Shown one piece after another: positions 3,896-50,711 of a DNA stretch of 53,846 bases. Each line of letters begins with the position of its first letter. Within the stretch, counting starts at the first letter, position 1. A program made the translations under genes and the position numbers. The notes beneath the pieces are model-generated. The model saw only the letters and a list, made by a program, of their open reading frames with translations, did no database searches and had not been told where the DNA came from. The stretch is from Escherichia phage mEp554, in sequence record PP180005; one strand, written 5' to 3'.

Positions 3896-5311
3896 TTAAA
3901 AAGATGCGTTATTCTGATTGTTTCGTTGGTTAAAACGGCTTGTGCGATGATTCATTGACTGAATGCACGCTGCGGCTGCGCGCGCCTGGTCGCATGGCAA
4001 GATATTACCGTTGTCATCAAACCGCTGGTAAACAGTTCCAGACTTACCATGACGGTTTTTTGACACAATAATTTCCATATATTCGCGGGCAACAGACTGT
4101 TCATCGTAATATCCATCTCGGTAAACCATGATTATCCTGTCGGCATCTTGCTCAAGGTTGCCCGAATCACGAAGATCAGAATTGTTAGGTCGCTTGTTCG
4201 GTCGTTCCTCAACACGGCGGGACAATTGCGCCAGCGCCAACACTGGTACACGCAATTCTTTAGCCATCATCTTTAACGACCACGACAATTGCCCTACGGC
4301 GAGATCATGACGTTCGGCCTTAGCCAGCTTCATTAACCCGATATAGTCAATCATTACCATACCCAGGTTCGGGTGATCCTGCTTCATCCGTTCCGTTGTT
4401 GCGCGTATTTCCTCAACCGTTAACTGCGACGCGTCAACGATCCACACATCAAGATTAGCAAGTGCGCTCATACCCTGGCCGACATGCGCCCACCCCTCAT
4501 CATCAAGTTTTACAGGATTGCGCAGGCAGTCGGTTGATAAATTACCAGCGCCCGCGATAGCGCGCTCAGTCATCTGATCGAGTGACATTTCAAGCGTGAA
4601 GAACAAAACGCCAACCCGCTGATCCTTGCTGCCAGGGTAAGGTCGCTCAGCGGCAGCGCGGGCAATTGTCAGCGCCAACGCAGATTTACCAGACCCAGGG
4701 CGTCCGGCGAGAAGTACCAAATCAGTAGCGTTAATGCCGCCCAACATTTCGTCGAGTGGTTCTATACCTGTTTTGATGTTGTCAGAGTTGACACCGCATT
4801 CCATGCGCTTGCTTAAAACGTCAGTATATTCCTGTACCGCATCGCGCAACAGAACAGGAATGATCTTGTCTTTCGTTACCTTTAATTTTGAATACCGGGA
4901 ATCAAAATCTTTCATCGTCTCTTTGACGACCTCAAGCGTCCCAGTCTCCAGTTTGTAGCGCATATCGTCGATTAGTTCCAACATCTGCCGCCGCTGGTGC
5001 TCTTCACGTAGTAACTGTGCGTATCCCTTCAGGTTGGCAGCAGACGGGCACGAACGCGCCGTTTGCATTAGCGGTACGAAATTTTCATTACCAATCTCAT
5101 CACCGACCAGCAACGCATCTATGAGATTTCTGTTTCTGGCTTGTGCCCGGATAACTTCAAACGCACGTTTATAGAGCGGGATCGTGAACACTTCAGGATC
5201 AAGTGTGGCGAGAACATCTTGCGCGTTAGGAGTTAGGCCACCTAACAGCAGCCCGCCGATAACTGACGCCTCACGTTCCTGCCGTAGTGAGTTTATTTGC
5301 TCAGTTACCAT
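3896..5311 (-). CDS. Replicative DNA helicase, DnaB family
   Basis: 471 aa; Walker A GRPGSGKSALALTIA; DnaB-like N-terminal domain; GGAGG SD. Confidence 0.9.
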   Translation of the reverse strand: MVTEQINSLRQEREASVIGGLLLGGLTPNAQDVLATLDPEVFTIPLYKRAFEVIRAQARNRNLIDALLVGDEIGNENFVPLMQTARSCPSAANLKGYAQLLREEHQRRQMLELIDDMRYKLETGTLEVVKETMKDFDSRYSKLKVTKDKIIPVLLRDAVQEYTDVLSKRMECGVNSDNIKTGIEPLDEMLGGINATDLVLLAGRPGSGKSALALTIARAAAERPYPGSKDQRVGVLFFTLEMSLDQMTERAIAGAGNLSTDCLRNPVKLDDEGWAHVGQGMSALANLDVWIVDASQLTVEEIRATTERMKQDHPNLGMVMIDYIGLMKLAKAERHDLAVGQLSWSLKMMAKELRVPVLALAQLSRRVEERPNKRPNNSDLRDSGNLEQDADRIIMVYRDGYYDEQSVAREYMEIIVSKNRHGKSGTVYQRFDDNGNILPCDQARAAAACIQSMNHRTSRFNQRNNQNNASF

Positions 5312-5329: not shown

Positions 5330-6448
5330 TTACAAAATGGAAAATTCAGGGTAATAAACAAAGCGCCCGATCTCACCATGATCCGGGCTGTAAATTATTA
5401 CCGCCGCCAGGCGACGCGACCGCCAGCCGCCATTAGTTGAATAGGCATCTTTACCAGCTAACGTGCCGTGATACTCAACAACGCCCAACGATGATTCAAT
5501 CATCCGTTGATGATGCCAGTGCCCGCAGTGGGCGTAAACCGCCGCAGACTTGCCGAAATCCTCGCGCCAGTCAGCTACGCAAGCAGCCAATAAGTTTTCC
5601 GGCTTTTTGATAGTGTGCCCGTGGTGGTAAGCAAGGAATGTTTTCCCGTACTGCGTGTGGTGGACGATAGTAGGTGACACATCAACCGTCACGCGCGGTT
5701 CATCTTCGTAAAAAGCCGCCAGCGCCGCACGTAGCCAAATCATACCAGACTGGTCATGATTCCCTGATAACACCTGGATTTCCACATCCTTATGATTTAG
5801 CAACATCTTTCCTACAGCCCGCCGGACAGACCGGATCGCCACATAAACAAGTTTTGCGTAGCGCGAATCGCAATCAAGAACGTGATTGCTTGATGGCGTC
5901 ACTGGTAACAATCCGTCAGTGTGAAGCAGGTCGCCCCCGAGAAGAAGAACCGCTTTTTCACTCATAGGGGCAGCGCCAACTGCGTAGTCAAAGAAGTCAT
6001 TTAACACGCGTTCAGCGATCCCAGTGTCGTAGCTCTCGCCGCATTCAGCTTTATGAGCAAGCGCCCCGATGTGCAGGTCAAACACCGGATAAAGTGCCAG
6101 GCTTTTTTGAAAATCAATTTCAGGCACTGGCACGGCCTCCGCGCGTGGTATTTCTTCCGTGAATGCGTCGCGGGCCGCTTCCATTAACTGTTCCATTTCG
6201 TCGCGGTCACGGGCTGTTTTAATCCAGCGCATGATCACATTGCCATCCTTATCGACTAGCAACGACTCGCCATTAACACCAAAACCAGGAGCGCGGCGCG
6301 TTGATAATAAACCGCGTTTTGCCAGTTTTGCTCCCAGGCGTTCGACATTGCGTTTAGACATGCCGTACTTTTCAGCGATCTGTTTGTACGTTAATCCGTT
6401 GTTATATTCAGCGATCAATTGCTCATCACTGATTTTTCTTTGCGACAT
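5330..6448 (-). CDS. HTH domain protein fused to calcineurin-like metallophosphoesterase
   Basis: Phosphoesterase motifs DLH, GDLLHTDG, GNHD, HHGH, GHWHH; N-terminal LTYKQIAEKYGMSKRNVERL HTH; start at SD-preceded MSQRK. Confidence 0.75.
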   Translation of the reverse strand: MSQRKISDEQLIAEYNNGLTYKQIAEKYGMSKRNVERLGAKLAKRGLLSTRRAPGFGVNGESLLVDKDGNVIMRWIKTARDRDEMEQLMEAARDAFTEEIPRAEAVPVPEIDFQKSLALYPVFDLHIGALAHKAECGESYDTGIAERVLNDFFDYAVGAAPMSEKAVLLLGGDLLHTDGLLPVTPSSNHVLDCDSRYAKLVYVAIRSVRRAVGKMLLNHKDVEIQVLSGNHDQSGMIWLRAALAAFYEDEPRVTVDVSPTIVHHTQYGKTFLAYHHGHTIKKPENLLAACVADWREDFGKSAAVYAHCGHWHHQRMIESSLGVVEYHGTLAGKDAYSTNGGWRSRRLAAVIIYSPDHGEIGRFVYYPEFSIL

Positions 6449-6481
6449 AATGTTAATCCCTCCAGTTAACAAAATGTATAC

Positions 6482-7225
6482 CTATTTGCACGCAAAAAGT
6501 TCAGACACCCAAAGTTGACCCTTAGCAGTAAATAGTGATTGTACATAACCAGCATCCGAACATTTTACCACTCCATAGCCTTTGTCTAAAAACCACTGTT
6601 TGAACATGCGCCCGCCGCGCCTAATTCGCGTATCGTACACGTCAACCTGTTCAAGTTTTTTGTTGAGTTGCGTAGCAGTCATACCCAAAGGCTTGGCAAC
6701 CTGTGTAGCGTTGCGATACTGTTTGTTTCTCACAATCGCATCACAGACAGCCGCTTTTGGCGCTAATTCCTTGTTTTCCAGCTCCAGCCGTTCAGCTTCT
6801 TTCTGTGCTAATAGTTTTTGTTCCACCTCATCAGCCCATGCGCGAGCCGCAGCAACCGGGTCAGTGAAATCCGGCAAAGCTGGTTTAAAACCGTAATGTC
6901 CATTTTCACGCAAAGCAGGGAGAACATCCTCGCACACCCAATCCTGGAAGCGCTCAGCCGATTCTATTTTTGATCGCATCACAAGGCGGTAAACATCTGA
7001 TTCATGGATTAGCGTTACGCCTTGCGGGATTGGAGCGAATCCCAAATGTTCCATTTCAGAACATTTTATTTTTATCAATGACTTACAGTGATCTTTGATA
7101 GCTTTTTGTGGCGTAGCGTAACCAAGCGCCCGCGCCACATCCATTGCAACAAAAGCAGGTTTACCATCATAAATTACAGCAGTGATTTTATTGTCATCAA
7201 AATTAAAGCACATCAACTCAGACAT
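6482..7225 (-). CDS. Antirepressor-like protein (Bro-N N-terminal, KilA-C-like C-terminal domain)
   Basis: N-terminal FNFDDNKITAVIYDGKPAFVAMDVARALGY (Bro-N-like); C-terminal QVAKPLGMTATQLNKKLEQ (KilA-C-like); GGAG SD. Confidence 0.65.
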   Translation of the reverse strand: MSELMCFNFDDNKITAVIYDGKPAFVAMDVARALGYATPQKAIKDHCKSLIKIKCSEMEHLGFAPIPQGVTLIHESDVYRLVMRSKIESAERFQDWVCEDVLPALRENGHYGFKPALPDFTDPVAAARAWADEVEQKLLAQKEAERLELENKELAPKAAVCDAIVRNKQYRNATQVAKPLGMTATQLNKKLEQVDVYDTRIRRGGRMFKQWFLDKGYGVVKCSDAGYVQSLFTAKGQLWVSELFACK

Positions 7226-7357
7226 TGTAATTTCTCCGTAAAACGCGCTACAACGCAAAAATCCCACCGCGTAACCCGATTGCACAGGTTGCAGTGTTTT
7301 ATTGCGTCAGAGGCGCTTTCAGATGGCTAATTTTTGATTTACAGACTGATATGAATG

Positions 7358-7593: not shown

Positions 7594-8580
7594 TCAAAGA
7601 GCGCCTGCGCGTGTATCACGTAGCGTTTTTGGTTTAAGCAGGAAATCAAGTGTCGCAGTGAAGCCATCGCCGAAGTAAAAATCTGAAGCATTGTTTTTGA
7701 ACGTTTCAAAGTAGGCGACAAAGCCGTTAATGCTTTTGTCTTTCAGGTAGTCAGTGAACGCGTAGATCTTGCGTTCAAGATCCCGATCCAGTTCGGCAGG
7801 TGGCAACAGGCCATCAAACGTGCTGTTAAATGCCTCCACTACGTCTGCAGCGTTTGCAGTGGCTGACAGGTTGCGCCATTTTTCAGCATCAGCCAGATAC
7901 CCATCAAATTTAGTTACCCGGCAAATGTTAATAGGCTTAGGTGTTCCGCCACGACTACGCCATTGCGTTAAAGCCCACTCAATCACTAATGTGATCTCAT
8001 CCTCTGTGTACGCTTTACGTGTTTTTGTTTCTGTCAGTAGTTCTATGAATGGCTTTGCATCACGACATTTGCATCCTGCCTTGTCGTTATAGAAGGCCAG
8101 GCAACGCAATGCCGCTTCGTTTACTCCATCCTGATTGACCTGTTTTTCTTCTGGGGGGATACAAGGGGGTATATCTTTAATGTTCTCTTTACTGGTTATA
8201 TATGACTGATTAGGGTGTCTCTCTGACACTACCCCCGGTGTCACTGTGACACTACCCCGGTGTCTCTCTGACACTACCCCCGGTGTCTCTCTGACACTAC
8301 CCAGCAATGATGGTAGGACTATCACATAGAAGTTACTCGTTTGCTCCTTTCCTCCGATTAAGTATCTTGGTTGTTTAATCAATAGACCTTTCTCACAAAG
8401 GGCGTCGACGGCCCTCATTGCCGTACTCTTACTGATCTCGCATTCCTTTGCTATGTGATGATAAGAAGGGTAACACTCGCCGTTATCATTAGCGTTATCA
8501 GCTAACTTCAACAGCACTAGTTTGTGCATTGGGTTGCCGACCTCAGTATGGAAGACTTCTACCATTAGCCGCATACTCAT
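7594..8580 (-). CDS. Replication initiation protein (N-terminal winged-helix domain; iterons inside gene)
   Basis: N-terminal HKLVLLKLADNANDNGECYPSYHHIAKECEIS; four 22-23 bp iterons within coding sequence; sits upstream of helicase; start uncertain (8529-8595). Confidence 0.7.
   Translation of the reverse strand: MSMRLMVEVFHTEVGNPMHKLVLLKLADNANDNGECYPSYHHIAKECEISKSTAMRAVDALCEKGLLIKQPRYLIGGKEQTSNFYVIVLPSLLGSVRETPGVVSERHRGSVTVTPGVVSERHPNQSYITSKENIKDIPPCIPPEEKQVNQDGVNEAALRCLAFYNDKAGCKCRDAKPFIELLTETKTRKAYTEDEITLVIEWALTQWRSRGGTPKPINICRVTKFDGYLADAEKWRNLSATANAADVVEAFNSTFDGLLPPAELDRDLERKIYAFTDYLKDKSINGFVAYFETFKNNASDFYFGDGFTATLDFLLKPKTLRDTRAGAL
8214..8303. repeat. Origin iterons: four tandem 22-23 bp repeats GGTGTCTCTCTGACACTACCCCC, each with internal GTGTC/GACAC inverted repeat; AT-rich stretch at 8171-8213
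   Basis: Directly visible tandem repeats in rep gene, encoding SVRETPGVVSERH repeats; lambda O/ori-like arrangement. Confidence 0.7.
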
Positions 8581-8601
8581 AAGCATTAACCTCATGACGG
8601 A

Positions 8602-8847
8602 CTAAAACATTAACTGATAAACACAGAAGAAACCTGGCAGCTGGCTGATTAGGCCGCTTCTTTTCAGTTGATGCAGTGCAGAGATAGTATCGCGTAACGA
8701 AATTTCGCACATTTCCGCGATCTCTTCCGGCGTTACTTCGCTTTTGCCGTTGCATCCGGCCTTTGTTGCCAGTGCAATTAAGATGAGTTTTTGCACATGA
8801 TCATTGTTATTCAGGCGAATATCAAAAGCCTTGCGAACGTAATACAT
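8602..8847 (-). CDS. Small winged-helix DNA-binding protein, paralog of the replication initiator N-terminal domain; first gene of leftward operon (Cro position)
   Basis: VQKLILIALATKAGCNGKSEVTPEEIAEMCEIS aligns with rep N-terminus; GGAG SD before MYYVRK. Confidence 0.5.
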   Translation of the reverse strand: MYYVRKAFDIRLNNNDHVQKLILIALATKAGCNGKSEVTPEEIAEMCEISLRDTISALHQLKRSGLISQLPGFFCVYQLMF

Positions 8848-9112
8848 GTTTCTTTCTCCTATGGTTAGAGTGAACGCGCTGGCGGGTATCAAATTAGCAT
8901 TAGATAGCAGTGACTGACCGCTGAACAGATCCCGCCGTTGCGTGATATTTGTTTTTCGCTTCGCAGCGACACCGGATTTTTAAAGAGCTTTTAAGGTATG
9001 TGCCTTTTGTGCTTTCCCTTATCTTTTTCCTTGCATCATTGCAAGTTCGGCTTTACCTTGTCTGTAAGTTTACAGAATGGCGTTAACAGATCAAGGATTG
9101 AAAATTACATTT

Positions 9113-9153: not shown

Positions 9154-9801
9154 ATGAAAACAAAATGGTATGACTTAGCAAAACAACTCATGCGGGCGCA
9201 GGGTATGAGTCAGGATTCATTGGCAGATCTCATGGGGATCACAAAAGGCGGCTTGTCACACTGGCTTAACGGTCGCCGCGAGCCAAATCTTGAAGACATT
9301 GCGCGGATCATGCGGGCGCTTGGGCGTCGGCAGTTCACTGTCACACATGATGGAATGGTCATTGATGATTCTGTTTCTAACACGTTGCCGGGAGCGCCTC
9401 CTCGTGATTTAGGCAGTTACCCGGTTGTTGACTGGAAGGATGTAGCAAACAATATGGAAGACATAAGCAGATCAACATTGCCACACGTTACGACTAGCGT
9501 TATTTGTTCAGATGATAGTTACTGGCTGGTTGCTAAAGGCGAATCAATGAACGCGCCGCAAGGATTGAGTATACCAGCGGGGACGATGATACTTGTCGAT
9601 CCGCACGCGCCAGCTATTGACGGAAAACTGGTTATAGCCCAACTGGAGGAGGGGCAGATACCGACGTTTAAACAGTTGATTATTGATGGAGGCAGAAAAC
9701 TTTTGCGTTCACTGAATCCGTTGTATCCGCCGATCCCTATGAATCCAGAATCTAAAATCATAGGCGTGGTAGTGGATGCGAAGATCGTAAACCTGCCATA
9801 A
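9154..9801 (+). CDS. CI-like repressor, HTH_XRE plus LexA-like S24 peptidase domain
   Basis: N-terminal GMSQDSLADLMGITKGGLSHWLNGRR HTH; C-terminal GESMNAP (Ser) and TFKQL (Lys) S24 motifs; divergent from leftward operon. Confidence 0.85.
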   Translation: MKTKWYDLAKQLMRAQGMSQDSLADLMGITKGGLSHWLNGRREPNLEDIARIMRALGRRQFTVTHDGMVIDDSVSNTLPGAPPRDLGSYPVVDWKDVANNMEDISRSTLPHVTTSVICSDDSYWLVAKGESMNAPQGLSIPAGTMILVDPHAPAIDGKLVIAQLEEGQIPTFKQLIIDGGRKLLRSLNPLYPPIPMNPESKIIGVVVDAKIVNLP

Positions 9802-45224: not shown

Positions 45225-48200
45225 ATGAGTAGCGGCGGCGGCAAAGCCAAAACACCAACATTATTAAACGATAACCTGTATCATAAACAGTTTTATCGTG
45301 TTTTAGACATTCTCAGCGAGGGGCCGATATACGGACCTGTAAACCAGAAAGCGCCATTAAACAGCGTAATGCTTAATGACACGCCTATCACTGACGCCAA
45401 CGGTAATACATCAGTCCCCGGCGTTAGCGTGGCGTGGCGCAATGGTACTGCTGACCAGTCACCAATCAACGGCTTCAACGCCATTGAATCAACCGTTATT
45501 GTCAACGCAAAAGTAACTCACGATACGCCAATAATCAGGACCGTTTCAGATCCAAACGTTAACCGCGTAAGGCTGAATCTTGGCGTTGATTCTCTGGTTC
45601 AGTCAGATGATAAGGGCAATCAATACAATACATCAGTTACGTTGATGGTTGACGTTAAGCCTTCATCTTCAACAACGTGGTCACTGGTTAAGGATATTCA
45701 CATTGGCCCGGGTAAGCAAAGCGGCGAGTACCTCGAAGCGCACATCATCAAAGCACCGGATGAAAAACCGTTTGACATTCGCGTTCGTCGCGTAACGCCG
45801 GACAGCACTGGCGATCTACTTCACAATGATACCAGGTGGAGCAGTTACAGCGAGATAATCGACGATAATTTGTCTTATCCTCATACCGCTGTAGCAGGCG
45901 CGGTAATTGACCACGATCAGTATACTGACACGCCGACACGTACTTATCACATGCGCGGCCTTATTGTTGACGTGCCTGATAACTACGACCCGGAAACGCG
46001 CACGTACTCAGGTTTATGGCTTGGTGGCTTTAAAAAGGCGTACACCAACAACCCTGCGTGGCTTTTCCGGTATCTGGTTAAAAATGAACGCTTCGGGCTT
46101 GCCCGCCACGCTGGTTACATCGACGTTGATGACGGCGCACTGTATACGCTTTCTCAATACTGCGACCAGTTGGTAAACGACGGTTACGGCGGCCTTGAAC
46201 CACGCATGACGCTTAACGCTTACATCACGGAGCAAATGAGCGCCCGCGACTTGCTGGATAACATTGCAGGCATGTTCCGTGGTATCGCATTATGGGACGG
46301 GCAGCGCCTTACGGTGATGATTGATGCACCGCAGGATCCAATTGCCACCATCACAAATGCAAACGTTGTTGATGGTGCGTTTACTCGTTCAAGTATCGCC
46401 CGCGCAGAATCTTACAACGCCGTGATTGTGTCATGGACTGACCCGGAAAACGGTTGGGAACAATCAAAAGAATACGTGGCAGATGATGAACTGATCGCCC
46501 GCGATGGTTACAACGAAACCACGTTGGAGGCTTTCGGTTGCACGTCACGCGGGCAGGCGTACCGCGCTGGCAAATGGCTGATAGAAACAGCAAAACGCGA
46601 ACCCTCAAAATTCACGTTTAAAATGGCCCGTGACGCAATTCACTTCACACCAGGGGATATTATCGAGATACTCGACAATAACCGCGCAGGCGCTCGTTTA
46701 GGCGGTCGCATAGTGGCGAATAATGGGAAAGTTATAACTGTAGACAAAGTTGATTCTGACCTGGTGGCGGCTGGTGACACTATCAGCTTACTGGACAGCG
46801 ACGGCAAGTTTAAAAAACATCAGATCACTGGGGTTAACGGAAACAATATTACCCTTGCGTCAGCGCCCGCATGGATTCGTAACGGAACCGTGTTTGCTGT
46901 ATCGACTGAATCTGCAAAACCCGTTCTGTGTCGAATTACCAGCGTAGCGGAAACCGAAAACAACAGCGTGTACACCATCGAGGCTGCACAGCACGATCCG
47001 CATAAACAGGCTGTAGTTGATGAAGGCGCAATCTTCGAGGTAAACAACGACACGCTTAATCACTTCCGCGTGCCGAACATTGAAAATCTGAAGGTGTTAA
47101 ACGTTGGTTCTGAGACAGTACAATGCCGCGCAACATGGGAAACACAGACGACAACGCATCGCCTGACCTTTGAAATACGCGTATATAACACCGAAGGCCG
47201 CATTGTGGCAACTTATGAAACCACGAATTACCGCTATGATTTTTATGGCCTCGACGCTGGCAGCTACACTATTGGTATTCGCGGGCGTAATGACACTGGC
47301 ATGAAGGGTGCGGAAAGTATTGTGGACCTGGTTATTGGTGCGCCAGCGGCCCCGATTGGAGTCAATTGGGTTCCTGGTGTCTTCCAGGCAACGGTATATC
47401 CGATCAGCAAAACAACCCTGACCACTGACACGGCATATGATTTCTACTACTCAGGTGAAAATCAGATCACTGACCCGTCAAAAGTAACCACGCTGGCACA
47501 GTTTACCGGGCGCGGCTACCAATGGACTTTTGGAGGCATGAACACGGGACACACCTATTACGTTTATGTGCGCACGCGTAATGCCTTTGGTGTGTCAGAC
47601 TTCGTTGAGGTATCAGGTAAACCAACTGAAAACTTCGATGAAATCAGCGACTACGTGATGAAGGATGTCATGGAGTCAGAACAGTTCAAAGATATGATTG
47701 GCGACATTAAAGATCTTGGCGACCGCGCTGATCTTATCGAAAGCGCTACAAATGACCTGAAAAACGCTACTGACAACCTCAAAACTGCAACTGATAACCT
47801 GACAAACATCACTGACGATTTGAGGGTTGAAACTGACAACCTGACAAACATCACTGACGAATTGAGGACTGATACGGACGGCCTAATCACAGAAACAGGG
47901 GCCATAAAAGCTGACACAGACACACTGAAAAAAGAAACGGAAGATCTCTATAAAAAGGTTGAGGAAAACGCCGACGATATTGGACAGCATGAGGCAAGAA
48001 TAGATTCTCTTGAGGTATCTAGCGAAAAAGTTGGCAGTGAACTGGCGCAAGCAAAAGCAAGCCTGCAAAACGCGTCATTGGCGCTTATCAACAACTCCCT
48101 TGCTCAGACCAACACGCGGGTTACTCTCACTGCACAGTACAAGAAAGGCAGGACAGAGACGAAGGCTGAAATTGACCGCATCGACAACGTTATTGCTGAA

Positions 48201-50711
48201 GAGAAAAAGGCTACAGCGGAATCACTGGAAACCATCACAGCAGAAATGAACACGATGGATTCTAATCTTAAGGGTCAGATCTCCAACGTGGAACGCGCAG
48301 TGGCTGACGAATCAAGCGCCCGCGCTGAAGCAATCAACGGCGTTAACGCATCAATAAGCAATCTCGACAAGAAAACCGACGCCAGCGTCAATAGACTTGA
48401 TCAGGCCATCGCAGACGAAACGAACGCCCGCACACAGGCAGTCAGTGACGTTAACGCGAGTGTCTCATCGCTAGACAAGAAAACTGACGCCAGCGTGAAA
48501 CGCCTGGATCAAGCAATAGCAGACGAAACCAGCGCAAGAACTGAAGCCATCAGCGGTGTGAATGCGTCAATTTCCACGCTTGATAGCAAGGTAACAAGCA
48601 ATGTAACGCGCATAGATAAATCTATCGCCGACGAAACGAAGGCCCGCACTGACGCAATCAGCGGGGTCAAAGCAAGTATTGACACACTTGAAGGTAACAC
48701 CAATTCAGAAGTTAAACGCCTTGATCAGTCGATTGCCGACGAGGCCAGCGCCCGCGCCCAGGCTGTGAGCGATGTTAAAGCATCAATAAGCAACCTTGAA
48801 AGCAAAACTGACGCCAGCGTTTCACGTCTCGACAAGGCAATTGCAGACGAAACACAGGCAAGAAGCGCTGCAATAACAGATGTTAAGGCTGATTTGACAA
48901 CGCTTGAAAACAGCACAAACGCCAGCGTTAAACGTTTGGATCAGGCTATTGCAGACGAATCAAGCGCCCGCGCTGAAGCAATCTCAGGCATTAACGCGGA
49001 GATCGGCAGCATTGAAAATAGCGTTGACAAAAACAGCGATGATATAAATCAGACAAAAGCAAGCCTGCAAAACGCATCTATTGCTCTGATTAACAACTCA
49101 ATCGCTCAAACCAACACGCGTGTTACGCTTACGGCCCAATACAAGAAAGGACGCAAAGAAACCAACGCGCAAATTGACCGTATTGACAATGTTATCGCAG
49201 AAGAGAAAAAGGCTACAGCCGAATCAATTGGCGTGGTAAAAGCATCGATCACGGATCTTGATAAGAAAACCGATGCCAGCGTTTCGCGTCTCGATAAAGC
49301 AATTGCAGACGAAACCAACGCACGCAGCCAGGCGGTGAGCGACGTTAACGCAAGCATTTCAGCGCTCGACAAGAAAACCGATGCCAGCGTTAAGCGTCTG
49401 GATCAAGCTATTGCAAATGAAACCAGCGCACGCAGCGAGGCAATCAGCGGCGTGAATGCAAGCATTAACACCCTTGAAAGCAACACCGAATCCGAAGTTA
49501 GCAGACTGGACCAGGCAATTGCTGACGAGGCCAGCGCCAGAGCGCAAGCCATCAGTGGTGTGAATGCGTCAATTTCAACCCTTGATGGCAAGGTTACAAG
49601 CAACGTGACCCGCATCGACAAAGCCATTGCAGACGAAACGAAGGCACGCACAGACGCAATCAGTAGCCTCAATTCATCGCTTACCAGTACGATTAACTCG
49701 AAGGTGTCTGAGGTATCAACGGCGCTTTCTACACATGAAGCATCAAGCGCGGAAAAATTCGGCCAGATCTCAGCGTCTTTCGAATCTGTAAACTCAAGTA
49801 TTACAGAATGGTCGCAGGCTATGGCAACGGCTGACGAGGCATTGTCAACCAAAATTGATCAGTTAACAGTAACCGTTAACGGTAACAAAACGGCGATCGA
49901 GACGACATCGAACGCGCTAACCGATTTCAAGGGTAACGTTGATGCGTCGTATTCCATCAAGCTGGCAACCGATAACAACGGCATGAAGTACGCTACAGGT
50001 ATGTCGCTTGGCCTGACTGGTAACGGTACAAACTTTCAATCGCAGTGTATTTTCCTTGTTGACCGCTTCGTGTTAATGACAGCAGCAAACGGCACATATA
50101 CAACGCCTTTCTATATGTCTAATGGTGCAATGTATGTGAAAGAAGCGTTTATTAAAAACGCATCAATAGGAGAAGCCAAAATTGCAAACGCTGCAATCAC
50201 ATCAGCCAAAATCGCACAGCAAATACAGTCAACAGAATTTGTTAAAAACTCAAAAGGCTGGATGATTAACAAAGATGGGTGGGCTGAGTTCAATAGCGTT
50301 ACGGTGAGGGGTACTGTGTATGCTACGGACGGTAAGTTCGCCGGTTCACTTGAGGCGAAAACCTTTATCGGTGATGTTGCAAATATGTATACAGGAGGTG
50401 ACGTTAGCAGGTTAAATGATGGCGTACTGGAAAAAACAATTACATACAACGATACATCTAACGCAGCGTACAGACGACACATCTGCGTTATGGCAAACGT
50501 TAAAGGTTTTGGTGGCTGTACAATAACTATCGGAAGTTCAGAAAAATCCCTTTCTATGAGTGGAGACGAACGCCTTGTCATGCATTCAGCGGCAATAACT
50601 ACCAGTGGCGTTACAGTTAAAATTAAGGTATCCGCTCAAAATGGTAGGGGTGCATATATAAATTCGCCGACCGTCATTGTGTCGCGCGGTTCTGGTTCAT
50701 TCTCAGGATAA
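45225..50711 (+). CDS. Host specificity protein J-like tail tip / central fibre (1828 aa) with internal repeat expansion
   Basis: Lambda J-like N-terminal 800 aa; long coiled-coil repeat stalk; AGGAG SD. Confidence 0.9.
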   Translation: MSSGGGKAKTPTLLNDNLYHKQFYRVLDILSEGPIYGPVNQKAPLNSVMLNDTPITDANGNTSVPGVSVAWRNGTADQSPINGFNAIESTVIVNAKVTHDTPIIRTVSDPNVNRVRLNLGVDSLVQSDDKGNQYNTSVTLMVDVKPSSSTTWSLVKDIHIGPGKQSGEYLEAHIIKAPDEKPFDIRVRRVTPDSTGDLLHNDTRWSSYSEIIDDNLSYPHTAVAGAVIDHDQYTDTPTRTYHMRGLIVDVPDNYDPETRTYSGLWLGGFKKAYTNNPAWLFRYLVKNERFGLARHAGYIDVDDGALYTLSQYCDQLVNDGYGGLEPRMTLNAYITEQMSARDLLDNIAGMFRGIALWDGQRLTVMIDAPQDPIATITNANVVDGAFTRSSIARAESYNAVIVSWTDPENGWEQSKEYVADDELIARDGYNETTLEAFGCTSRGQAYRAGKWLIETAKREPSKFTFKMARDAIHFTPGDIIEILDNNRAGARLGGRIVANNGKVITVDKVDSDLVAAGDTISLLDSDGKFKKHQITGVNGNNITLASAPAWIRNGTVFAVSTESAKPVLCRITSVAETENNSVYTIEAAQHDPHKQAVVDEGAIFEVNNDTLNHFRVPNIENLKVLNVGSETVQCRATWETQTTTHRLTFEIRVYNTEGRIVATYETTNYRYDFYGLDAGSYTIGIRGRNDTGMKGAESIVDLVIGAPAAPIGVNWVPGVFQATVYPISKTTLTTDTAYDFYYSGENQITDPSKVTTLAQFTGRGYQWTFGGMNTGHTYYVYVRTRNAFGVSDFVEVSGKPTENFDEISDYVMKDVMESEQFKDMIGDIKDLGDRADLIESATNDLKNATDNLKTATDNLTNITDDLRVETDNLTNITDELRTDTDGLITETGAIKADTDTLKKETEDLYKKVEENADDIGQHEARIDSLEVSSEKVGSELAQAKASLQNASLALINNSLAQTNTRVTLTAQYKKGRTETKAEIDRIDNVIAEEKKATAESLETITAEMNTMDSNLKGQISNVERAVADESSARAEAINGVNASISNLDKKTDASVNRLDQAIADETNARTQAVSDVNASVSSLDKKTDASVKRLDQAIADETSARTEAISGVNASISTLDSKVTSNVTRIDKSIADETKARTDAISGVKASIDTLEGNTNSEVKRLDQSIADEASARAQAVSDVKASISNLESKTDASVSRLDKAIADETQARSAAITDVKADLTTLENSTNASVKRLDQAIADESSARAEAISGINAEIGSIENSVDKNSDDINQTKASLQNASIALINNSIAQTNTRVTLTAQYKKGRKETNAQIDRIDNVIAEEKKATAESIGVVKASITDLDKKTDASVSRLDKAIADETNARSQAVSDVNASISALDKKTDASVKRLDQAIANETSARSEAISGVNASINTLESNTESEVSRLDQAIADEASARAQAISGVNASISTLDGKVTSNVTRIDKAIADETKARTDAISSLNSSLTSTINSKVSEVSTALSTHEASSAEKFGQISASFESVNSSITEWSQAMATADEALSTKIDQLTVTVNGNKTAIETTSNALTDFKGNVDASYSIKLATDNNGMKYATGMSLGLTGNGTNFQSQCIFLVDRFVLMTAANGTYTTPFYMSNGAMYVKEAFIKNASIGEAKIANAAITSAKIAQQIQSTEFVKNSKGWMINKDGWAEFNSVTVRGTVYATDGKFAGSLEAKTFIGDVANMYTGGDVSRLNDGVLEKTITYNDTSNAAYRRHICVMANVKGFGGCTITIGSSEKSLSMSGDERLVMHSAAITTSGVTVKIKVSAQNGRGAYINSPTVIVSRGSGSFSG
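47750..49690 (+). repeat. Tandem repeats inside J: short TDNL-type repeats, then about twelve 96-bp units (DKKTDASVxRLDQAIADETxAR...) arranged as a duplicated block of about 1 kb
   Basis: Directly visible periodic DNA and protein repeats; linker QNAS(L/I)ALINNS(L/I)AQTNTRVTLTAQYKKGR occurs twice. Confidence 0.8.

Follow-up and report, generated by a model that had tools for sequence, protein, structure and literature searches.

Escherichia phage mEp554 (sequence record PP180005; the window analysed here, the whole stretch of 53,846 nucleotides (nt), is its complete genome) belongs to the mEpimmI group, Nus-dependent “non-lambdoid” temperate coliphages of the human gut (PMC11893012). Here, we report that the segment 8171-8303 of this genome is very probably its vegetative replication origin, situated in the part of the replication initiator gene that encodes the linker between the two domains of the protein. 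We favour this reading because the architecture of the segment, four short repeats (iterons) next to an AT-rich tract, is unique in the genome and corresponds to the origins of phages lambda (ori-lambda) and P22 (ori-P22) in how many repeats there are, in their symmetry and spacing, and in the order and position of the elements. The case is built on observations of repeat architecture, DNA-level selection, covariation between protein and iterons, module swapping and homology. As far as sequence analysis reaches, they support the proposal of a first-pass annotation of this DNA that the likely origin lies here.

The four iterons occupy 8214..8303 on the minus strand, where they encode initiator residues 93-122, and each contains a 5+5 dyad, GTGTC/GACAC. 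On the plus strand the unit reads GGTGTCTCTCTGACACTACC(CCC), with copies starting at 8214, 8237, 8259 and 8282, a start-to-start spacing of 23, 22 and 23 bp; its gene-sense form is GGTAGTGTC-N5-GACACC. Tandem Repeats Finder reported one array, 8214-8302, which scored 157 at a period of 23 (3.9 copies with 91% matches) and 164 at a period of 45 (2.0 copies with 95% matches). When the 20-mer GGTGTCTCTCTGACACTACC was searched through the 53.8 kb with up to 2 mismatches, all 4 matches fell in the array (0 expected from shuffled sequences), and the dyad GTGWC-N5-GWCAC was found exactly 4 times in the genome, again only in the array (0.14 expected). No second iteron-like array was detected anywhere in the genome by Tandem Repeats Finder or by the 20-mer scan. 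The four tandem repeats of 22-23 bp with GTGTC/GACAC noticed in the first-pass annotation were thus recovered both by the repeat finder and by the 20-mer and dyad scans.

In the direction of the gene, the iterons are followed directly by the AT-rich tract, a putative DNA-unwinding element at 8171..8213 (minus strand) that encodes residues ~123-137 (PNQSYITSKENIKDI). Its AT content is 74%, compared with 53% genome-wide, and by nearest-neighbour free energy the 43-bp segment at 8170 ranks at the 99.9th percentile for duplex instability, no other part of the gene being as unstable, in agreement with the earlier remark that an AT-rich stretch stands beside the repeats. The tract is kept across all three iteron classes described below (mEp021, mEp010, mEp013, mEp044 and the related loci L007-L011). 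The iterons and the tract both lie in the linker-coding region between an N-terminal HTH_36 domain (amino acids (aa) 14-65) and a helical C-region (from aa ~146).

Just past the AT-rich tract, at 8141-8170 (minus strand), the gene carries two runs of five to six C (ATACCCCCTTGTATCCCCCC in gene sense), encoding DIPPCIPP. The equivalent position of P22 reads ATACCCCCTTACCCCCTAAAGGGGG, and in distant relatives a recurring encoded motif, (N)TP(L/I)(P/S)P(K/Q)G, is found at this spot, with L050 1455-1480 as a further locus for the same observation. Other mEpimmI members have the inverted repeat AATACAC-TTC-GTGTATT there instead. The C runs could be either a DNA element belonging to the origin or a protein motif.

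Lambdoid phages follow a rule in which the iterons and an AT-rich tract lie centrally within the O gene (PMC7466680). The layouts of the three phages were compared: lambda has four dyad iterons spaced 20, 24 and 23 bp, 348-432 nt into O; P22 has four dyad iterons with the same spacing, ~352-438 nt into gene 18; and mEp554 has four spaced 23, 22 and 23 bp, 278-367 nt into its own gene. The iterons of each phage thus stand about two helical turns apart, and each array is followed by an AT-rich tract, which in mEp554 is 43 bp long. Set against ori-lambda, mEp554 therefore has the same number of iterons (four) in the same order and location and with similar spacing, and its likeness to lambda covers iteron number, dyads, the spacing of ~20-24 bp, the AT-rich tract and the place of the whole in the linker-coding part of an initiator gene. 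It also extends to an iteron number that varies among relatives and, presumably, to iteron binding by the N-terminal domain.

The protein itself tells a different story from the layout. The first-pass annotation had called this the lambda O/ori arrangement, and while the layout agrees with ori-lambda and ori-P22, the mEp554 initiator is not a homologue of lambda O. Neither domain showed similarity to lambda O, the best BLASTP alignment having an E value of 0.097 over 13 aa and the C-domain profile reaching a probability of 0.2% in hhalign; the initiator also failed to match PF04492 (Phage_rep_O), even at E up to 1, a family matched by both lambda O and P22 gp18 at ~1e-36 to 1e-38. Homology to lambda O was rejected on these grounds. 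Iteron plasmids (RepA, pi, TrfA; Rep_3) offer another likeness, with direct repeats, a winged-helix initiator and an adjoining AT-rich unwinding element. Plasmid iterons, however, are usually intergenic and asymmetric, whereas those of mEp554 are dyad-symmetric and lie inside the initiator coding sequence. No Pfam match to Rep_3 (WH1-WH2) or a related plasmid Rep family was obtained for the initiator, only a sub-threshold match to RepL (15.9 bits where 20.3 are required; E 0.0096).

The iterons are a DNA-level feature that is translated incidentally, not a conserved peptide repeat. We draw this from a period that is not a multiple of 3, a consensus read in two frames and the lack of a third-codon-position bias. 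Relatives of the region were collected by a search of a viral collection, which returned 40 loci, and a tblastn search of a genome collection gave no matches; over this region, mEp554 shares 90-93% nucleotide identity with mEp010, mEp013, mEp021, mEp044, mEp515 and MagusPhagus. With a period of 22/23 bp, adjacent iterons fall in different frames, one of which yields GSVRET or GSVTVT and the other VVSERH, and the gene-sense DNA consensus read in these two frames is GGTAGTGnCA-N4-GnnACC. The repetitive PGVVSERH linker that had been predicted from the translation is accordingly only part of the picture: the peptide does occur, twice, but the alternate copies are read in the other frame, as GSVRET and GSVTVT, and the repeat belongs to the DNA. 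Among ten related loci, the numbers of variable sites at the first, second and third codon positions were 10/8/6 in the iteron array, whereas the N-domain had 12/1/60 and the C-terminal 300 nt had 15/14/51. The encoded peptides vary (VRET, VTVT, DTES or GTKQ at one position; SERH, AESN or TQSH at another) and the dyad is kept.

Only a 45-bp double iteron (23+22 bp, 15 codons) preserves the reading frame, and this double iteron is the true expansion unit of the array. Relatives carry 2, 4 or 6 iterons, with proteins of ~313, 328-332 and 345 aa, respectively; the locus L011 has six. These copy-number alleles parallel the difference between lambda, with 4 iterons, and the Shiga toxin (Stx) phages, with 6, and in lambda 2 iterons plus the AT-rich tract are enough for unwinding (PMC7466680).

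The remaining tandem repeats of the genome, all in the tail-fibre gene, have periods that are multiples of 3, in contrast to the iterons. They lie at 47755-47858 (21/42 bp) and 49257-49522 (108 bp) on the plus strand, within the gene for an 1828-aa central tail fibre (45225-50711), and their periods of 21, 42 and 108 mark them as repeats at the protein level, of a coiled-coil-like kind.

One might suppose that the array encodes nothing more than a flexible peptide linker, retained for reasons of the protein or produced by neutral slippage and devoid of function as DNA. The in-frame translation into GS/PG-rich peptides, a length that varies by units of 15 aa and the very low score of the region in the structural model are what such a linker would give. 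Against this, the 22/23-bp period means that adjacent copies are translated in different frames, the dyad is conserved but the peptide is not, the third-position bias is missing, and the copies of each array all carry the class variant that matches the recognition helix, as detailed next; we consider this explanation very improbable and retain a DNA-level role for the repeats.

Covariation between iteron and protein was assessed in 120 protein clusters with an HTH_36 N-domain, the iteron class being read from the linker peptide. The recognition helix of mEp554 lies around I49-S50-K51-S52-T53. Iterons of the form GTGTC-N5-GACAC went with the helix I[S/G]KST in 39/39 clusters (mEp554, L007 and L011 are of this class), GTGGC-N5-GCAAC with INKST in 27/27 (mEp021, L010), and GTGWC-N5-GWCAC, the xQSH peptide class, with ISKRT in 54/54 (mEp010, mEp013, mEp044, L008, L009), so that helix variant and iteron variant agree in 120/120 relatives. 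The class variant is present in every iteron copy of each array, and one protein, P0107, combines a hybrid recognition helix with a hybrid array. At half-site position 4, T is paired with S or G at residue 50, G with N at residue 50, and A/T with R at residue 52. The T-to-G change at this position in the mEp021 class affects both arms, as a symmetric dimer would require. Two other segments behave differently: one ~10 residues upstream of the helix (YQHIAKQ or YHHIAKE) and the linker past the AT-rich tract (KDIPP or NNTLR) both reassort among all classes.

Beyond these point variants, whole modules have been replaced. In 36/46 related loci, among them mEp515, MagusPhagus and the majority of the relatives taken from viral contigs, the HTH_36 N-domain gives way to an unrelated Lin1244_N domain (PF14297, 7e-11), with the same C-domain at >90% identity. 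At the equivalent spot of the linker these loci carry four 11-bp GGGTCATGA repeats, followed by an AT/purine-rich tract of their own. The exchanged segment reaches from where a small upstream open reading frame (ORF) begins to where the C-domain begins, and the N-domain and the repeats are exchanged together as one module. Taken with the 120/120 covariation, these swaps lend support to the suggestion of the first-pass annotation that the repeats define the specificity determinant of the replicon. The GGGTCATGA repeats of this putative alternative origin module (L003 2319-2359; L006 2315-2355) stand one helical turn apart with a TCATGA palindrome inside, and the tract after them is (GAA)n-like, AT/purine-rich and variable in length.

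Such mosaicism raises the question of whether the repeats are only its by-product, serving as a joint or hotspot of recombination at which N-domains are exchanged. Module boundaries do lie nearby, at the beginning of the small ORF and at that of the C-domain, and the linker segment past the AT-rich tract is itself mosaic. The repeats, however, sit inside the swapped block and not at its edges, and they are wholly different between the two module types, both of which should possess the same site if recombination relied on one. We therefore regard this explanation as scarcely credible. As for the polymorphism of origin recognition within mEpimmI, it could, in a tentative view that we hold to be a minority possibility, reflect diversifying selection on replicon specificity; a possible driver would be escape from ori- or initiator-directed interference between relatives with the same repressor, co-resident or co-infecting.

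Iteron-like sites can also serve control, as in the handcuffing of plasmids, and the sites could then act only in regulation (autoregulation, a transcriptional roadblock or copy control) with replication starting elsewhere. Apart from this general precedent, the genes on either side lend the idea some weight, since the gene preceding the initiator also codes for an HTH_36 protein, and a MarR-like protein is encoded downstream. The upstream gene (8602..8850, minus strand, immediately before the initiator) encodes an 82-aa protein paralogous to the N-domain of the initiator (31% identity, 1e-8). This protein differs with the module type, the mEp515 version being 35% identical, but all three iteron classes have the same HTH in it, and L007 and L010 lack the gene. 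As a class-specific reader of the iterons it was therefore rejected; the gene is an accessory one, probably not the iteron reader, and its protein does not behave as a conserved Cro. With this small protein set aside as a reader, the regulatory-only explanation also has to face the adjoining AT-rich tract, the position-for-position agreement with ori-lambda and ori-P22, and the fact that no other iteron-like array was found in the genome. We judge it unlikely and keep to the segment as a replication origin.

The gene that harbours the segment is supported as a replication initiator by several lines of homology. The ORF spans 7594..8595 on the minus strand, with a likely start at 8580 (MSMRL, with GAGG 9 nt upstream), and this start agrees with a 100% identical database protein of 328 aa, “DNA replication protein O [Escherichia phage mEp554]”; its homologues number 1435. 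In the 328-aa numbering, the protein consists of an HTH_36 winged helix-turn-helix (~14-65), the ori-carrying linker (~90-145) and an all-helical C-region (~146-328). The N-domain matched HTH_36 (PF13730) with E values of 2e-14 to 2e-15 (53-57 bits, where 25 suffice), and the initiator also matched several PHROG families of “replication initiation O-like” proteins. Matches to DnaD_N were weak, and Pfam assigned neither DnaB_2 nor Phg_2220_C to the protein. Together with the C-terminus resembling P22 gp18 described below, the HTH_36 and PHROG matches bear out the earlier placement of the repeats within a replication initiator ORF.

No Pfam family covers the C-region (aa ~146-328), which is rare: 1.84 billion representatives yielded 58 clusters at 50% identity. 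Its relatives are fused to alternative N-domains, namely Phage_rep_O in 22/48, HTH_36 in 10, DnaD_N in 4 and Lin1244_N in 2, and Phg_2220_C was matched by 5/48 of the C-domain relatives. Many distant relatives also show repeated linker peptides. Because of these alternative N-domains, many of them with linker repeats, the C-region is a shared “effector” half of origin-binding initiators.

The last ~85 residues (7594..7851, minus strand) are homologous to the C-terminus of P22 gp18, with 37% identity over 90 aa (E 3e-14), and hhalign aligned this tail with gp18 residues 176-271 over 95 columns (probability 99.5%, E 1.5e-22); it would be the helicase contact surface. Between the linker and this tail lies a middle helical subdomain (aa ~146-240; 7894-8160, minus strand), which belongs to no Pfam family and which P22 gp18 lacks. 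In a model of the C-domain built by AlphaFold from a more diverse alignment, with a predicted local distance difference test (pLDDT) score of 92, the middle subdomain is confidently modelled as a helical bundle. This model had no match in the PDB by Foldseek, and a sequence search of solved structures likewise returned none for the initiator or the C-domain profile. Searches of BFVD with Foldseek connected the middle subdomain to Phg_2220_C, “replication initiation and membrane attachment” and “replisome organizer” proteins (probability ~1 over 80-100 aa, E at least 0.02). The initiator thus shares with the DnaD-like/Phg_2220_C “replisome organizers” (for example the SPP1 G38P/G39P class) an N-terminal winged HTH and weak fold matches of the middle subdomain, although these similarities fall below normal significance.

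Downstream of the initiator, with two genes between, a gene on the same strand (3896..5311, minus) encodes a DnaB-family replicative helicase. It matched phrog_19 at 8.8e-110, DnaB_C at 1e-75, the DnaB N-domain at 5e-12 and structures of E. coli DnaB at 3e-58, and it is 58% identical to P22 gp12 over 444 aa. A replicon devoid of a helicase, as the annotation of a related genome would have it, is ruled out by the PHROG and Pfam matches of this gene. The equivalent gene in the MagusPhagus record (CDS0009) is labelled “hypothetical protein”. A scan of the larger early ORFs, with many small ORFs lying outside it, found no P-like or DnaC-like loader, and the related genome has none annotated; the phage DnaB-type helicase sets mEp554 apart from lambda.

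The likeness to P22 is therefore twofold: the ori within the initiator gene, with four dyad iterons followed by an AT-rich tract, and the gp18-like tail together with a phage-encoded gp12-like helicase downstream on the same strand. There are also clear differences. The N-domain is HTH_36 in mEp554 and Phage_rep_O in gp18; the iterons are unrelated (GTGTC-N5-GACAC in mEp554, TTACC..GGTAA in P22); mEp554 has the extra helical subdomain of ~95 aa (146-240) between linker and tail; and anti-repressor (Ant)-like and exonuclease-like genes separate its initiator from the helicase. Since the tail and the helicase are of the P22 kind while the N-domain is not, the mEp554 replicon is a P22-type initiator-helicase module with a swapped origin-recognition module.

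From these sequence comparisons we infer how the origin might work, from binding through unwinding and helicase recruitment to the actual start site. Dimers of the N-terminal HTH_36 domain would bind the four dyad iterons through the half-site GTGTC, and the bound initiators would form a nucleoprotein complex like the O-some. This complex would destabilise or melt the adjacent 43-bp AT tract, and the gp12-like helicase of the phage (3896-5311) would be recruited by the gp18-like tail, perhaps aided by the middle subdomain. Transcription from an early promoter, divergent from cI, may cross the origin as in lambda and aid initiation. The specificity of the replicon would be set by residues 50 and 52 of the recognition helix together with position 4 of the iteron half-sites.

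Several points weigh against the identification of 8171-8303 as the origin or against parts of it. The classes of iteron are few (three plus the hybrid P0107) and the two covarying sites are only ~130 bp apart, so linkage contributes to their agreement; that the flanking segments reassort among the classes speaks against linkage as the whole explanation. The full-length AlphaFold model, made with 23 close homologues, was poor, and as its pLDDT is only 49, the description of the linker as disordered is weakly founded. DnaA boxes showed no enrichment. The sign of the GC skew changes at ~7.5-9.5 kb, but this is also the junction of two divergent early gene blocks, and because the turn coincides with their meeting point the skew is uninformative. 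Finally, the paper describing the mEpimmI phages makes no mention of “iteron” or “origin of replication” (PMC11893012).

With these reservations, the probable origin and probable specificity determinant are now located for a prevalent group of gut coliphages for which no origin had been described. The replicon can be seen as a mosaic, P22-like in its helicase and initiator tail and unrelated to P22 in its N-domain and iterons. The natural variants of helix and iteron, as well as the alleles with 2, 4 and 6 iterons, are suited to tests of how HTH_36 domains read DNA and how many iterons are required, and if the reading of diversifying selection were true, they would form a natural allelic series giving a residue-to-base recognition code for HTH_36 initiators. 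Practical uses would include annotation (helicase and initiator are “hypothetical” in some records), ori-plasmids and the interpretation of replication-based interference between related prophages. No concept is changed by the finding, as the lambda/P22 paradigm already predicts such an arrangement; it is useful and unsurprising, and its value lies in the annotation and the variant series and not in a new principle.

Around the origin, the repressor gene (9154-9801, plus strand) is divergent from the block of initiator and helicase genes, and nutL has been placed upstream of the repressor gene (PMC11893012). Scans for promoters and terminators gave no more matches than in shuffled sequences. 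Of the two genes between initiator and helicase, the one next to the helicase (5330-6472, minus strand) encodes 380 aa and is exonuclease-like, with a match to PHROG 704, “DNA repair exonuclease”, at 6e-139; it has no significant Pfam family, only sub-threshold N-terminal HTH-like matches (E 0.002-0.007). Relatives retain this gene (mEp021_11, mEp010_12), which may therefore be a component of the replication module. The other (6482-7285, minus strand) is a Bro-N/KilAC Ant-like gene in what is a slot for variable cargo, which holds a 495-aa zinc-ribbon protein in mEp021 and different or no genes in other relatives.

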